Positions 3,672 through 63,576 of a DNA stretch of 64,000 nucleotides are shown one piece after another. Made by a program: the position numbers and the translations under genes. This DNA is from an uncultured Clostridia bacterium (GTDB lineage: Bacteria; Bacillota; Clostridia; TANB77; CAG-508): NCBI GenBank assembly GCA_947581825.1, contig CANPVP010000009.1:10366-74365 (forward strand). The letters are read 5' to 3'. The notes below the pieces were generated by a model, which made no database searches, was not told the origin of the DNA, and saw only the letters and a program-made list of their open reading frames with translations. Numbering within the stretch: the first letter of the stretch is position 1; the number at the start of each line of letters is the position of its first letter.

Positions 3672-4145
3672 TTAATTATTAGTCGCCTTTTCTTCTAAAA
3701 ACATTTTTCTCGTAATAAAATTAAATACCATTACAACAGCTGTTGCAAATATTTTAGCTAACATATAATGTATACCTATTTTTTCTGATAATCCCCAAAC
3801 AATTAAGTCATTTAACATTAATCCTAACACACTAAAAAATATAAATAATATAAAACTTTTTTTCTTATCATTATTTTCACTTACATCAAATACCCATTTT
3901 GTACTTGCTATATAATTATATATTAGTGAAATTATAAAAGATAGTGTGTTTGCTAATACTATATTCAAATTTAAAATACTTTTAAAAATGAACAAAAATA
4001 CAAAATCTATTAGTGTTGCTATAACTCCTACTATAAAAAACTTGACTATTTGTATTAATAACTTTTTATGCTTTTCTTTTAAATTTAATTTTATTTTATT
4101 TAATATTTTATTTATCAAAACTTCTATTTTATCATTATTCTCCAT
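3672..4145 (-). CDS. GtrA-family membrane protein (lipid-linked sugar flippase candidate)
   Basis: Four TM segments and an FFIVGVIATLIDFVFLFIF-type GtrA N-terminal helix. I prefer the internal start MENNDKIE at 4145 (RBS AAGAGG 6 nt upstream) over the ORF-track start at 4175. Confidence 0.75.
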   Translation of the reverse strand: MENNDKIEVLINKILNKIKLNLKEKHKKLLIQIVKFFIVGVIATLIDFVFLFIFKSILNLNIVLANTLSFIISLIYNYIASTKWVFDVSENNDKKKSFILFIFFSVLGLMLNDLIVWGLSEKIGIHYMLAKIFATAVVMVFNFITRKMFLEEKATNN

Positions 4146-25808: not shown

Positions 25809-25867
25809 TTTACAAAATCTCCTTATAATCTTATTTTATAGCATTTATACAAATATTTGTCAAATAA

Positions 25868-25900
25868 TATGAATCGGGCGACCACTGGTCGCCCCTACAT
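25868..25900 (+). repeat. GC-rich hairpin repeat, copy 1 (REP-like: stem GGGCGACC/GGTCGCCC followed by CTAC)
   Basis: TATGAATCGGGCGACCACTGGTCGCCCCTACAT, identical over 33 nt to 26109-26141. Confidence 0.85.
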
Positions 25901-25984
25901 ATATGTTATTTTGTTTCATATTTTTTTGCATCATTATAATAATACATTTGTATTGAATTAACATCTCTACTGTTAATATTTTTA

Positions 25985-26060
25985 CGGGTCGTCGGTGCTG
26001 AGGCTGTTAAGGCTTTGCCTGTTACAGCCTCAGTATGCCTGCTGGACGCCGACCCCTACA
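25985..26060 (+). repeat. Extended GC-rich hairpin with the same feet as the REP-like repeats
   Basis: ACGGGTCG...CGACCCCTACA encloses CTGAGGCTGT/ACAGCCTCAG (10 bp) and an apical AGGC-TTT-GCCT. Confidence 0.75.
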
Positions 26061-26108
26061 GAATTGCAATTCATTCACATTGCAGTCCATAATTAATAAT
26101 GCATAATT

Positions 26109-26141
26109 TATGAATCGGGCGACCACTGGTCGCCCCTACAT
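26109..26141 (+). repeat. GC-rich hairpin repeat, copy 2
   Basis: Identical 33-mer to 25868-25900, same orientation, 241 bp downstream. Confidence 0.85.
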
Positions 26142-26167
26142 TTATTCAATATTTTGCAATATTTAAT

Positions 26168-26324
26168 AAAATTTTCTATGTTTTTTCGTAGCGAGCTTGT
26201 GTGGGGACCGACTAGTTAGAAACAGTTAAGAAAATATCGAAGCAATCGCTAGCGAAATTGCAAGAATATTTTCTATACGGTTTCTACTAGTTGGGACGAG
26301 CGAGAAAAAAGCATAGAAAATTTT
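26168..26324. repeat. Foldback element copy 1 (113-nt conserved core 26191-26303 plus copy-specific complementary arms)
   Basis: The core matches the reverse complement of 41446-41558 with 5 mismatches and no gaps (manual alignment). The arms AAAATTTTCTATGTTTTTTC and GAAAAAAGCATAGAAAATTTT are complementary apart from a 1-nt bulge. Confidence 0.85.
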
Positions 26325-37974: not shown

Positions 37975-38236
37975 CAGTTAAAAAAAATCCATTTCAGTCT
38001 TTTAGGACGAAATGGATTTATATTTCCGCGGTACCACCTAATTTAAAAATAATTTTCTTGCAAATTATTTTTCACTCGAACTCTTTAACGCAGATATACG
38101 TCTTAAACTACTGCATTTTTCATTTAAGCAACCATAAGGTGATAACATATATACTATTCTTACTGGTTCTCAGCAAAATCCAGTTCTCTGTAAAGTATTC
38201 ATATATATATTGTATCCTTATCTTTGTTTTTCATTT
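37975..38236 (-). promoter_or_regulatory. T-box leader (Ile specifier) controlling ileS
   Basis: On the minus strand: AGAGA/GNUGNGA-like stem I elements, a candidate specifier ATC followed by A (plus 38141-38143), an AGTA box, GCGTTA, and the T-box core AGGTGGTACCGCG (plus 38027-38039). The terminator is AATCCATTTC...GAAATGGATT followed by T8. Confidence 0.9.
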
Positions 38237-39816: not shown

Positions 39817-40617
39817 TTAACTTCTTAGTGCAATATTGTTGCCTGATTCATATTTTTTCATTGCAAATTTGAACATTAAATTTGCAACAACAGCAAAAAA
39901 TATAGTAGCAATTATTACTATCACTAAATATTTAAAATTGAAATTAAACAATATTTTTATTGGCATATGTACCATGTATCCTGCTGGTATTACAGTATAC
40001 ATTAAAAATTTTGTTACCTTGCCAAAAATCTGCTCTGGATATGTCATAAAAGTTATTAATAAGCTATTTTCATAAACATGTGCCACATTTTCTACATCGC
40101 CTACCCATATTGCTAATAATCTAATTATTGTTGTTGCACTGCAAAATATTATCATTCCCATAATAGCAAAAAATACTATTGATAAAAAATCTAATATTGT
40201 ATCGCTTACATATATTCCAAGAACAATTCCATACAACATATCACCTGCTGCAGCAAATGAACATTTAGATGTTGCAACTGCCAACAAAGTATTCTGTGGT
40301 TGGATTATGTATGTATCTAATTCCCCTGATATAATGTATTTATTTAATTTACTAATACCATTAAAGAAAAAATCTGCAAGTCCAACTGCTAGAGTTGGTA
40401 TAGACCAAATATATAATATTTGCTTCATATCTATTCCTGATGTATTTTCTTCTCCTACACCTATCACCACTAACCAAAAGATCAGAAAAAATCCATTATT
40501 TACAAACATAAATATTGTTTGCATAATAAAACTCTTTTTGTACTCAAATGCTGATTTTATATTATATTTAGTGCTTATTAATAAAAATTTAATTAATTTT
40601 TTAACCTCCATTAACAT
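39817..40617 (-). CDS. ABC-2 family permease (second permease of the operon)
   Basis: Polytopic membrane protein. The likely start, MLMEVKK (40617) or MEVKK (40611), overlaps the stop of the upstream permease. Confidence 0.7.
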   Translation of the reverse strand: MLMEVKKLIKFLLISTKYNIKSAFEYKKSFIMQTIFMFVNNGFFLIFWLVVIGVGEENTSGIDMKQILYIWSIPTLAVGLADFFFNGISKLNKYIISGELDTYIIQPQNTLLAVATSKCSFAAAGDMLYGIVLGIYVSDTILDFLSIVFFAIMGMIIFCSATTIIRLLAIWVGDVENVAHVYENSLLITFMTYPEQIFGKVTKFLMYTVIPAGYMVHMPIKILFNFNFKYLVIVIIATIFFAVVANLMFKFAMKKYESGNNIALRS

Positions 40618-41374
40618 TGATTTTTTCCACCCCTCTTCTATATAAAATTCTTGCAAAAACTACCAGTACAATAAAAGCCACTGCTTGGCAAGTCAATATC
40701 TCTATTGATTCATTCATTTCAAATTTTGAAAATATTCTTGCAGGAGCATACGTTATGTATGTTGTTGGCAAAACTGAAAAGATATTTTTTACAACACTTG
40801 GGTAAAATTCTAATGGTGTAAAAACTAATAATAGCATCATTTTTTGTGTAACTAACCAAAAAGAATCATTTTCTTCTGTGTAGAAAGCTAATAATCCTAT
40901 AATTAGCTGTATGTATATTCCCATCATAACTGATATAGCTACAGAAACCATAGTTACTATTATACCTGTTGCTGTTAAATCTATTGGTCCAGCAAATACA
41001 ATTCCCAAAACAATTGCAAAAATCACATTAATTGTAAATCTAACTAATACAGATAAATCTTCAGCTACTGTATATTTTATAAAATCAACTGGTCTCACTA
41101 GCATATTAGCAATTTGTCCACTTTTTACTTGATCTGCAATATAATCATATTTTTTATTACAGCTATACATTATAAATTCTCCTAGAATTATGTACCAAAT
41201 CAATTGTGGCTTTGTATATCCTGCAATATTCTCTTTTCCTTGTAAAATATAATCCCACAATTCATTAAATACAAATACATGTATAGCAAATGAAACTAAT
41301 AAAACTATATAGTCGAATATGAAATTTATTTTTGTTTTTAAGCTATATTTAAATATTTCAAAATATTTTCTCAT
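40601..41374 (-). CDS. ABC-2 family permease (first permease of the operon)
   Basis: Polytopic membrane protein. Start MRKYFEIF at 41374 with RBS AAGAGGTG 6 nt upstream. Confidence 0.7.
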   Translation of the reverse strand: MRKYFEIFKYSLKTKINFIFDYIVLLVSFAIHVFVFNELWDYILQGKENIAGYTKPQLIWYIILGEFIMYSCNKKYDYIADQVKSGQIANMLVRPVDFIKYTVAEDLSVLVRFTINVIFAIVLGIVFAGPIDLTATGIIVTMVSVAISVMMGIYIQLIIGLLAFYTEENDSFWLVTQKMMLLLVFTPLEFYPSVVKNIFSVLPTTYITYAPARIFSKFEMNESIEILTCQAVAFIVLVVFARILYRRGVEKINVNGG

Positions 41375-41426: not shown

Positions 41427-41580
41427 CTAGATAATTATATTATTTTCGCTCGTCCCAACTAGTAGAAACCGTACAGAAAATATTCTCGCAATTTTGCTAG
41501 CAATTGCTTCGATATTTTCTTAACTGTTTCTAGCTAGTCGGTCCCCACACAAGCTCGCTTAAAATAATATAATTATCTAG
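41427..41580. repeat. Foldback element copy 2 (core 41446-41558, inverted relative to copy 1)
   Basis: The core is 108/113 identical to the reverse complement of 26191-26303. The arms CTAGATAATTATATTATTTT and AAAATAATATAATTATCTAG are perfectly complementary (20/20) and unrelated to the arms of copy 1. Confidence 0.85.
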
Positions 41581-41610: not shown

Positions 41611-42576
41611 CTACTTAGTATAAATGTCGTAAATGACTTCTTCTAGTGGTAAAGGAAGTGCCTCCATGTCTATTATGTTTCCATATTTCATAAACTTTTC
41701 TAAAATCTCTGAAATTGTTATTCTTTTTGTATCTACTTTTAACATTATTTTATTTTCTGCTTTACTCATTATTGGATAGTCAAATTCAACATTTTCAATA
41801 TTATTATCATACATAATAGTTATAAATTTTTCTGATAAATATTCATGCTTTAAAGTCTCTATACTCTCATCTTTTATTATAGTTCCTTTATCAATTATAA
41901 TTATTCGTTCACAAACTTTTTCAATATCTCCTAAGTCATGGCTCGTTAAAAATATTGTAGTATTATATTTCTTATTAGTATCTAAGATTGCTTGTCTAAC
42001 TTTTTCTTTAACTACTATATCTAAGCCAATTGTAGGTTCATCTAAAAATAGGATTTCTGGTTTATGTAACATTACGGCTGCAATTTCACATATCATTCTT
42101 TGTCCTAATGATAATTTTCTTACTGGAACATTTATTATTTCTTGAAGATTAAAAAGTTCTACTAATTCATTTATTCTCTCTTCTAACTCTTGTTTTGGAA
42201 TATCATATACTGCTCCTAACAATCTATATGTATCTATTGCTGGTAAGTGCATCCATAAACTAGATTTTTGTCCAAACATACAGCCTATTTTATATCCTAA
42301 TACTTTTCTATCTTTTGTTGGATTTAATCCTAATACTTCTACATTACCTTCTGTTGGATGAATTATTCCTGTAAGCATTTTTATTGTTGTAGATTTTCCA
42401 GCTCCATTAGGTCCTACAAAACCCACTATCTCTCCATCTTTAATTTCAAAATTAATGTTTCTTACAGCTTCAAAATTCTTTTTTTCTCCTTTCACAAAAC
42501 CTAAAAAGCCCTTTTTTCTTATTTTCTTTGTGAAAGTTTTCTTTAGTCCTTCAACTCTAATCATATAAACATTCAT
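41611..42576 (-). CDS. ABC transporter ATP-binding protein
   Basis: 321 aa. Walker A GPNGAGKST, LSLGQ, Walker B ILFLDEPT. The start is ambiguous (ATG at 42576 or MIRVEGL at 42564). Confidence 0.9.
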   Translation of the reverse strand: MNVYMIRVEGLKKTFTKKIRKKGFLGFVKGEKKNFEAVRNINFEIKDGEIVGFVGPNGAGKSTTIKMLTGIIHPTEGNVEVLGLNPTKDRKVLGYKIGCMFGQKSSLWMHLPAIDTYRLLGAVYDIPKQELEERINELVELFNLQEIINVPVRKLSLGQRMICEIAAVMLHKPEILFLDEPTIGLDIVVKEKVRQAILDTNKKYNTTIFLTSHDLGDIEKVCERIIIIDKGTIIKDESIETLKHEYLSEKFITIMYDNNIENVEFDYPIMSKAENKIMLKVDTKRITISEILEKFMKYGNIIDMEALPLPLEEVIYDIYTK

Positions 42577-48985: not shown

Positions 48986-48998
48986 ATGTATATAAATA

Positions 48999-49338
48999 AG
49001 TAAATCTGTAAGCCGGGTTCTGTCTAGAATAGCCATTTATCTAGGATATATATTACTATATACCTCAAGCCACCAATTCAAAAAGACGCCGAGCAGACTT
49101 AGCCTTTTTTATTAGGTGTTGCTCCAGATGGGGTTTACATTGTCCCAATATGTCACCATATCAGCGGTAAGCTCTTACCTCACCTTTTCATCCTTACCTA
49201 AAAATTAGGCGGTTATTTTCTGTTGCACTTTCCTTAAGGTTTCCCTCACTGGACGTTATCCAGCATCATTGCTCTATGGAGCCCGGACTTTCCTCTCGTA
49301 CAACCTTGCGGTTTATACCAGCGACTATTCAATTTACT
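48999..49338 (-). ncRNA. rnpB: RNase P RNA, type B (Firmicutes)
   Basis: The minus strand contains GAGGAAAGTCCGGGCTCC, GAAAGTGCAACAGAAA, TGTAAACCCC and ACAGAACCCGGCTTACAG. The P1 pairing AGTAAAT/ATTTACT defines the ends. It is a GC-rich island in AT-rich DNA. Confidence 0.93.
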
Positions 49339-49347
49339 CTAAATTTT

Positions 49348-63330: not shown

Positions 63331-63512
63331 AACTTTCTCCTTAGTATATAATTATTTGTATATATTCTAAACTAAATTTATTTAAATATCAATTATTATA
63401 TATCTTTTTATTTGACTTTTTTGTGATTATATTATTGTTAATATTTTCCATGATTCATCTTGTAAATGAATATATTTTAAAATAAAGCATCTCTACCTTC
63501 TATATAACAAAC

Positions 63513-63535
63513 GGGAGACCGATGGTCTCCCCTAC
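63513..63535 (-). terminator. nrdG terminator that is also a member of the GC-rich hairpin family
   Basis: Plus strand GGGAGACC-gat-GGTCTCCC-CTAC. On the minus strand the hairpin is followed by GTTTGTTATAT, 40 nt after the nrdG stop. Confidence 0.6.
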
Positions 63536-63576
63536 ATTTGTTCTGTATTTTGCTGTCATTCACAGAATTTTAAAAT

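Follow-up and report, generated by a model that had tools for sequence, protein, structure and literature searches.

Which kind of element recurs, in inverted orientation and with self-complementary ends, at two places in the genome of an uncultured Clostridia bacterium? The window analysed here is a stretch of 64,000 nt from contig CANPVP010000009.1 (positions 10,366 to 74,365), with a GC content of ~27% and nearly all of its genes on the minus strand. A preliminary description of this window had pointed to a 113-nt core present in two inverted copies, each enclosed in its own palindromic arms, and had left the element without a family name. The comparison with related genomes shows that this foldback element is a real, previously undescribed repeat family. 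With moderate confidence, it can be regarded as a family of non-coding, non-autonomous, interspersed foldback repeats (imperfect palindromes) of the type of miniature inverted-repeat transposable elements (MITEs) or REPINs, in which the unit is the whole hairpin. This MITE-, REPIN- or ERIC-like placing is based on the dispersed non-coding copies, their insertion polymorphism and decay, their occurrence in both orientations and their clustering with GC-rich palindromes.

Alignment of positions 26191-26303 (plus strand) with the reverse complement of 41446-41558 reproduces the core over 113 nt, with no gaps and five mismatches (26216, 26247, 26254, 26262 and 26275). Similarity between the two copies ends at most 1-2 nt from either core end, as sharply as had been described. 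In the apical palindrome, 26247 and 26254 face each other as one base pair, and both versions, TCGCTAGCGA and TTGCTAGCAA, stay palindromic; the complementary pair among the five differences was thus correctly noticed. The two copies form the longest inverted repeat of the window in a repeat finder (120 nt, 94%), and a 25-mer from the core occurs exactly twice in the window, with no occurrence expected from 100 shuffles. The self-complementary arms of ~20 bp were likewise recovered in each copy. Those of copy 1 pair except for one bulged G, while the arm of copy 2 (CTAGATAATTATATTATTTT on the minus strand) has a perfect complement. Both copies fold into a single long hairpin, as anticipated, with energies of -55.5 kcal/mol (z = -7.45) for copy 1 and -62.9 kcal/mol (z = -9.83) for copy 2, and none of 200 shuffles was as stable in either case.

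Further copies exist outside the window. One genome per species was scanned with a pattern made of two conserved boxes (Box L and Box R, see below), demanding an exact match to 22-23 specified bases. Seven loci were obtained, all from two metagenome-assembled genomes labelled uncultured Clostridia, Lapin-032 bin6 and BRZ_EA bin99, with at least three and at least four copies, respectively. The same scan of a metagenome collection gave four matches, one true copy (L009) and three chance hits, and that of a viral-contig collection gave no true copy, all nine matches being GC-rich chance hits. Contigs fetched via the neighbouring proteins added further copies, and a profile search detected a further, more diverged copy beyond the reach of the exact pattern (L038, 83 bits). 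The family is therefore rare and lineage-restricted, yet wider than the exact-match census, which is incomplete since the genome and metagenome scans needed exact matches. As far as could be searched, its range is a narrow lineage of uncultured gut Clostridia with ~27% GC. Members of the family are found in CANQSV01, CALXPY01, ERZ27249221 (where NODE_172 is the contig of the window), ERZ27249635 and GCA_964311455.1. Seven independent Logan contigs (L013, L014, L044, L045 and L048-L050) have their first base 8 nt ahead of the copy 2 core (TATTTTAAGCG...). Their common start points to a graph branch from another paralog with that 30-mer, and by extension to more copies per genome than were recovered.

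No described family was found either, in agreement with the first assessment. Using blastn, neither the core nor the whole element had a match in 72,556 plasmids, 50,697 phage records or 5,426 complete Escherichia coli genomes. A scan of the window against Rfam 15 at the gathering thresholds returned only RNase P and T-box, with no match at the element, and permissive scans (E <= 10) of two regions including the surroundings of the element returned only noise. No conserved small open reading frame (ORF), in either orientation, is common to the subfamilies.

The anatomy of the element was derived from an alignment of 12 distinct copies from at least four lineages. Here, the repeat unit is the whole hairpin of 155-190 bp and not the 113-nt core alone. 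From the outside to the centre, it consists of AT-rich arms of 20-33 bp, Boxes L and R, an inner stem of ~30 bp and a free-varying apex. Box L has the consensus AGCGAG-N3-5-GTGTGGGGA, with 3 of 19 columns variable, and Box R the consensus GGGACGAGCRAG, i.e. GGGACGAGC(A/G)AG, with 2 of 12 columns variable. The inner hairpin varies in 65 of 95 columns, most of all at the apex, and the arms and flanks in ~85% of theirs. The two boxes lack mutual complementarity and make up an asymmetric internal loop, which bears out the conserved loop proposed before. In the copies where the box strand is antisense to the host gene the apexes have diverged, and the boxes are as invariant as in the sense copies. 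The junctions read T-run, core, A-run in all copies, and the tag position reads GTAG, GAAG, TAAG or TTAG depending on the copy.

Within the inner hairpin, the sequence changes between lineages and the pairing is kept. In the predicted helices, 92% of the alignment cells are standard pairs, compared to 42-52% with slid partners. At one position of the inner stem, L001 has G-C and copy 1 has U-A, and both copy 2 and L002 have C.A. Changes on both sides were seen in 14 of 19 pairs of the outer stem, a covariation matched in none of 500 shuffles, so the idea that the arms evolve in concert is well supported. The arms of copy 1 reappear at the non-homologous locus L002, with A>G compensated by T>C and a 1-bp deletion by one in the other arm. 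In L001, the ortholog of copy 2, CATG replaces CTAG on both arms. The preliminary description of the flanks as unrelated and copy-specific holds for copies 1 and 2, whose arms are dissimilar, but not for the family as a whole, in which the arms are specific to subfamilies. Apart from the recurrence at L002, type-A arms are common to L005, L007 and L038, and copies with such arms stand before different genes and belong to different species. The inner 7-8 bp of the arms (TTTTTTC / GAAAAAA, followed by a single bulged base) cross lineages, being common to copy 1, L002 and all copies of the BRZ lineage, and the bulge position is kept in the W1, L002, type-A and type-B subfamilies.

Table 1. Parts of the two foldback copies in the window and the genes on either side of copy 2.
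Feature	Position	Strand	Remarks
Copy 1, 5' outer arm, AAAATTTTCTATGTTTTTTC	26168..26187	+	Pairs with 26305-26324; arm also in L002 and L006, with compensated differences
Copy 1, Box L, GT-AGCGAG-CTT-GTGTGGGGA	26188..26207	+	Long unpaired side of the internal loop; AGCGAG and GTGTGGGGA invariant
Copy 1, inner hairpin, CCGACTAG...GCTAGC apex...CTAGTTGG	26208..26294	+	Imperfect stem of ~30 bp
Copy 1, Box R, (GG)GACGAGCGAG	26295..26304	+	Short unpaired side of the internal loop; GGGACGAGC invariant
Copy 1, 3' outer arm, AAAAAAGCATAGAAAATTTT	26305..26324	+	Complement of 26168-26187, one bulged G
Copy 2, whole element	41427..41580	-	Between ABC ATPase gene and ABC-2 permease gene
Copy 2, arms	41561..41580 and 41427..41446	-	
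Copy 2, Box L	41542..41560	-	
Copy 2, inner hairpin	41455..41541	-	
Copy 2, Box R	41447..41454	-	
ABC ATPase gene	41611..42576	-	Beside copy 2
ABC-2 permease gene	40601..41374	-	Beside copy 2, other side

Copy 2 lies in a spacer of 236 nt between its two neighbouring genes. In relatives with a permease that is 73-82% identical, a gap of just 18-49 nt separates these genes and the element is missing, so the check for empty sites suggested earlier gave a positive answer. No long palindrome (2 x 20 bp) is present at these empty orthologous sites, and the one at L028 holds a short AT palindrome (TATTTTATAAAATA). Since the sites of the relatives are empty, short and without a long palindrome, copies have been gained by insertion into intergenic or leader DNA. 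Products of decay were found as well: a 3' half copy is present at L003:4963-5031, the leaders of L034-L037 retain only the 3' arm (GAAAAAAGATATTATCACTATTGGG), and solo arms are located next to full copies in L002, L004 and L032. Because such solo-arm remnants exist, the arms belong to the element.

Besides gain and decay, one change of orientation was observed. Locus L001 (Lapin-032 bin6) follows the window collinearly to the left and right of copy 2, at 92-96% DNA identity, and 174 bp of the element align in reverse while the flanks do not. Copy 2 is taken to be truly inverted in place between these sister genomes, because the final k-mer used in assembly, to judge by how the contigs are named, exceeds the arms in length. 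At least ten assemblies, from the window's lineage and a third permease lineage taken together, all have the orientation of the window, leaving a single flipped lineage. Near-identical permease loci showed no orientation polymorphism within a lineage among the assemblies. The inversion thus seems to be rare and not phase-variable, as all but one lineage agree in orientation.

With respect to gene context, three loci of the window's lineage can be compared. The first is downstream of dprA, 360 nt upstream of a ThiF-family gene, the second is the spacer between ABC ATPase and ABC-2 permease, and the third is flanked by a manganese-efflux (MntP-family) gene and by one of unknown function. These loci are mutually unrelated and point to no consistent gene class. 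In the BRZ lineage, every copy has a conserved promoter-like site (TTTACT-17-TATATT) on one side and, on the other, the ribosome-binding site of a gene for a pilin-like surface protein. Relative to the neighbouring genes, copies occur in both orientations. The box strand is the mRNA sense strand in L005, L007, L030, L031 and L038, and antisense in L003, L004, L009, L032 and L033.

The pilin-like proteins (L005:6716-7672, with paralogs in L003, L004, L007, L034 and L038) share ~75 N-terminal residues (KRGITLIALAVTI...), including a prepilin-like hydrophobic segment, while the remainder is hypervariable. Their family is very large, with 2,628 protein matches at E <= 1e-5. In a Pfam scan of five of these proteins, four had no match at E <= 0.01, and the fifth (L005) had only a sub-threshold match to PKD_4 (18.9 bits, with a cut-off of 27). 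The paralogs also have promoter and leader conserved among them. Essentially the same gene, with a protein that is 99% identical, is preceded by a type-A leader in some assemblies and by a type-B leader in others. As these two leaders differ in arms, apex and flanks, whole leader cassettes must have been exchanged. A short upstream ORF with a (GA)n tract is present before pilin-like leaders (L003 ~4040-4075 and L034 ~1710-1770), and this tract is a candidate for phase variation by slipped-strand mispairing.

Among known systems, classical MITEs resemble the element in their small size, multiple copies and lack of coding capacity, and in having terminal inverted repeats, polymorphic insertions and products of decay. 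Unlike in MITEs, the terminal repeats of the element are not conserved between subfamilies, and its conserved sequence is subterminal and asymmetric. The earlier remark that it is not an ordinary MITE or insertion sequence with terminal repeats and target duplications therefore stands, as the termini are variable and no target duplication was seen. No parent insertion sequence was recovered, although no long-gap search was made. Palindromic intergenic repeats that are co-transcribed with genes are known in other bacteria, such as ERIC/IRU in enterobacteria, Correia/NEMIS in Neisseria, BOX and RUP in pneumococcus and bcr1 in Bacillus cereus. These are also imperfect palindromes of 100-200 bp that occupy intergenic or untranslated regions in either orientation, vary in presence between relatives and form stable hairpins in mRNAs. 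The foldback element differs from the ERIC/Correia type by the absence of a TA or other target duplication, by its variable termini and by its invariant asymmetric internal loop, and shares no sequence similarity with such repeats (blastn, all complete E. coli genomes).

REPINs are hairpin-forming doublets of inverted REP units mobilised by RAYT transposases, each unit being a short palindrome with a conserved GTAG or CGTC tag. In REPINs, as in the element, boxes are conserved in either arm, the paired spacer is conserved less, and compensatory changes are frequent (PMC3116915). Like the REPIN/RAYT system, the element is short, intergenic, non-coding and multi-copy, and forms one long hairpin as single-stranded DNA or RNA; it is also inherited vertically within a lineage, and REP-like hairpins adjoin copy 1. 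In contrast to REPINs, the boxes of the element are neither mutually complementary nor small palindromes, its outermost ends are the least conserved, and a GTAG tag is found in only some copies. The element is unlike the described palindromic repeats, having no target duplication, the least conservation at its termini and sequence constraint only on asymmetric subterminal boxes.

Template switching at quasi-palindromes is an established mutational mechanism. In the foldback element, recombination between the arms or replication template switching within one copy could flip the asymmetric centre, and the same exchange might copy changes from one arm to the other, so that the arms drift fast yet stay complementary. 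The stems would be constrained to pair only. Most likely, the invariant boxes are recognised by a protein that acts in trans on the folded single strand (DNA, possibly RNA) and would move or maintain the element. Effects on host genes, by a stable hairpin in a 5' leader or between cistrons, might be secondary. The function of the element and its mobilising activity are matters that we only infer.

Mobilising enzymes and effects on genes are known for very few of the small palindromic repeats of bacteria, common as such repeats are. The present family cleanly separates parts that only need to pair (arms and stems) from parts with a fixed sequence (the two boxes). With gain, flip and decay all documented, it is tractable for studying how repeats spread without conserved ends or target duplications. 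The same holds for the concerted evolution of palindrome arms and for the recruitment of repeats as leaders of variable surface-protein genes in uncultured gut Firmicutes. Even as a passive repeat, the element is useful for annotation and explains contig breaks at the sites where it occurs.

Several observations weigh against a mobile MITE/REPIN-like repeat. A direct target-site duplication, a classical MITE trait, is absent from the hairpin ends of copy 1, copy 2, L001, L002, L003 and L005. The termini are the least conserved part of the element, unlike the terminal repeats of classical MITEs. Only 3-5 copies per genome were recovered, in a census that is incomplete owing to the exact matches demanded by the scans. 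No transposase, recombinase or reverse transcriptase gene adjoins any copy, and an IS256-type transposase gene is located upstream in L031 only. The mobilising activity is hypothetical because no such enzyme gene adjoins any copy. All copies of the BRZ lineage are in leaders of one paralogous gene family, and they may have multiplied together with these genes or via leader recombination, not by transposition. In addition, the strand carrying the boxes (GUGUGGGGA) always folds better than its complement, by 5-16 kcal/mol, and conserved boxes with covarying stems are also the signature of a functional structured RNA.

A structured RNA is indeed the first alternative to be considered, in the form of a cis-acting leader or intercistronic hairpin or of a small RNA, with the asymmetric loop as a protein-binding site. 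This loop could, for example, be K-turn-like, with tandem G.A pairs by CCGAC/GUUGG, UGUGGG as a bulge and GCUUG/CGAGC as a short helix, the long stems serving as a scaffold. Apart from the covarying stems, the invariant loop and the better fold of one strand, such an RNA would fit the BRZ copies, which are transcribed as a 5' leader since they lie between promoter and ribosome-binding site, and the position of copy 2 between two cistrons of an ABC-transporter operon. However, about half of the copies are antisense to the host transcript with boxes that are equally invariant, and the same locus is inverted between sister genomes. The number of G.U pairs is similar on both strands; a clear strand bias is thus missing, and these counts do not discriminate RNA from DNA. 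In L003 and L005 the GCUUG/CGAGC helix contains a break with no compensating change, L038 lacks the CCGAC/GUUGG helix, no Rfam match appeared even at E <= 10, and the window's lineage offers no consistent gene class. Overall, a structured RNA seems unlikely.

Another possibility might be an inverton, in which the arms are the inverted repeats of a site-specific or recombination-driven inversion and flips alter the signal reaching the downstream gene, giving phase-varying surface proteins. The signal could be a promoter-like sequence (TTGGGA-16-TATTAT) reaching from Box R through the adjacent arm, or a different leader RNA. Invertons are invertible promoter or leader switches such as the cwpV and flgB switches of Clostridioides difficile. 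The element shares with them inverted repeats of ~20 bp around an asymmetric segment of 100-200 bp upstream of surface-protein genes, as well as one in-place inversion. Its copies are directly upstream of a hypervariable surface-protein family in both orientations, and Box R with its arm gives a 9/12 match to a sigma-70 promoter, which faces the gene in L005 and has the opposite direction in L032. That match is marginal, though, no commoner than in shuffles, and absent in copy 1 and L038. The ten or more uniform assemblies beside one flipped lineage also speak against a switch, no mixture of orientations within a population was seen, and the segment between the repeats is itself a hairpin. Neither the 64-kb window (ORFs inspected by eye, no Pfam search) nor the genes called in the fetched loci contained a recognisable recombinase or invertase. 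From locus to locus the arms differ, unlike recombinase-specific inverted repeats, and the type-A and type-B leaders before the same gene are swapped cassettes and not simple flips. An inverton is accordingly quite improbable.

We give a similarly low probability to a new kind of self-inverting element, in which a protein reading the asymmetric loop would drive both spread and flip, and in which the two orientations would act as alternative 5' leaders that diversify the expression of the pilin-like proteins.

It might also be that only the 113-nt core (Box L, inner hairpin and Box R) is mobile and inserts at the centre or loop of AT-rich palindromes that already exist, perhaps by means of a single-strand transposase of the HUH/Y1 type, as one of the options in the preliminary description implied. 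The dissimilar arms of copies 1 and 2 around cores that are 96% identical are consistent with this, as are the T-run and A-run at all junctions and the short AT palindrome at the L028 site. The intergenic region of copy 1 also holds GTAG-tagged REP-like repeats, a hint that this genome may encode a RAYT or IS200-like enzyme; no gene for a RAYT (Y1/HUH) transposase was found in the 64-kb window or in the loci of up to 20 kb. On the other hand, arms travel with the core to non-homologous loci (W1 and L002; L005, L007 and L038), their inner 7-8 bp are conserved between lineages, and solo arms and arm-only remnants exist. Neither the window nor the fetched loci contain an empty palindrome made of the two arms (2 x 20 bp), the orthologous empty sites of 18-49 nt are too short for one, and the left and right junctions have no cleavage-type tetranucleotide in common. 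Insertion at the centre of AT-rich palindromes is therefore not favoured, and the chance that the core moves alone is small. The linkers of 20 nt and 11 nt by the hairpin foot resemble the 19/10-nt end geometry of IS608, a likeness that was left as weak since the junctions share no cleavage tetranucleotide.

Finally, a local inverted duplication over 15 kb or mere chance, with the two copies in the window as the only ones, would fit their number and opposite orientation but has practically no probability left: the homology is limited to ~120 nt with sharp ends, shuffles gave no matches, and the copies at unrelated loci and in other genomes, together with the inverted ortholog L001, refute it, as the preliminary description had allowed for.

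Other known hairpin systems were considered and rejected. Integron attC sites and the attP hairpin of CTX phage are recombination sites made of a folded single strand. Like the foldback element, they are imperfect hairpins in which a protein would recognise the unpaired asymmetric features and not the sequence of the stems, which are free to vary. The element differs from attC in having no R''/R' consensus (RYYYAAC / GTTRRRY) at its base (CCGAC/GTTGG merely resembles it), no cassette arrays and no integrase gene. An attC site was rejected given the AT-rich variable base of the hairpin and the scatter of the copies among housekeeping genes, at a distance of 15 kb. A protelomerase or telomere-resolution site was rejected as well, its defining features being missing, and for an internal sigma-70 promoter or intrinsic terminator only marginal consensus matches were obtained, no more than in shuffles. 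Retron non-coding RNAs consist of terminal inverted repeats (a1/a2) enclosing msr hairpins and a long msd stem-loop, with a contiguous reverse transcriptase gene (PMC7736814). Terminal repeats and a long stem-loop are present in the element, but it has no msr hairpins (Box L amounts to ~20 unpaired nt), no reverse transcriptase gene adjoins any of more than ten loci, and no msr match was found in Rfam at E <= 10. Its UAGCGAG presumably resembles a part of the msr of Ec86.

Returning to the MITE/REPIN-like repeats, the foldback copies cluster with other small GC-rich palindromic repeats. At positions 25868-25900 and 26109-26147 of the window, a GC-rich hairpin GGGCGACCACTGGTCGCCC is followed by CTACA, and a diverged third copy is present at 63505-63560. 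On the minus strand, this repeat reads as GTAG plus a palindrome, resembling GTAG-tagged REP elements (compare PMC3733652), and two such copies share the intergenic region with foldback copy 1. In the sister genome, a HicB-like antitoxin gene (L006:6194-6628) takes the place of the REP-like repeats at 25845-26133 of the window; judging from this comparison, the DNA next to foldback copy 1 forms a variable hotspot. A nested, GC-rich hairpin of 86 nt that ends in CCCCTACAG is found at 25982-26067, and partial copies of it are located 25-40 nt from the foldback element in L002 (4968-5030) and L006 (6966-7023). Based on these adjoining partial copies, the 86-nt repeat and the foldback element tend to sit together.

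A second repeat family of the same architecture was identified at L038:5632-5732, L007:1118-1218 and L009:3-103. It has palindromic AT-rich arms of 16 bp, an AAAAACA/TGTTTTT stem and a GC-rich core (CGGTCTCCAAGCTCACGGGTCACCCCCCGCC...), and always adjoins the foldback element in pilin-like leaders. Its core shares the motif CGGTC..CAAGCTC with the complement of Box L. Elsewhere in the window, two ordinary RNA features are located at 38000-38233 and 48993-49340: a T-box leader that precedes the gene for isoleucyl-tRNA synthetase, and an RNase P RNA of class A, respectively.

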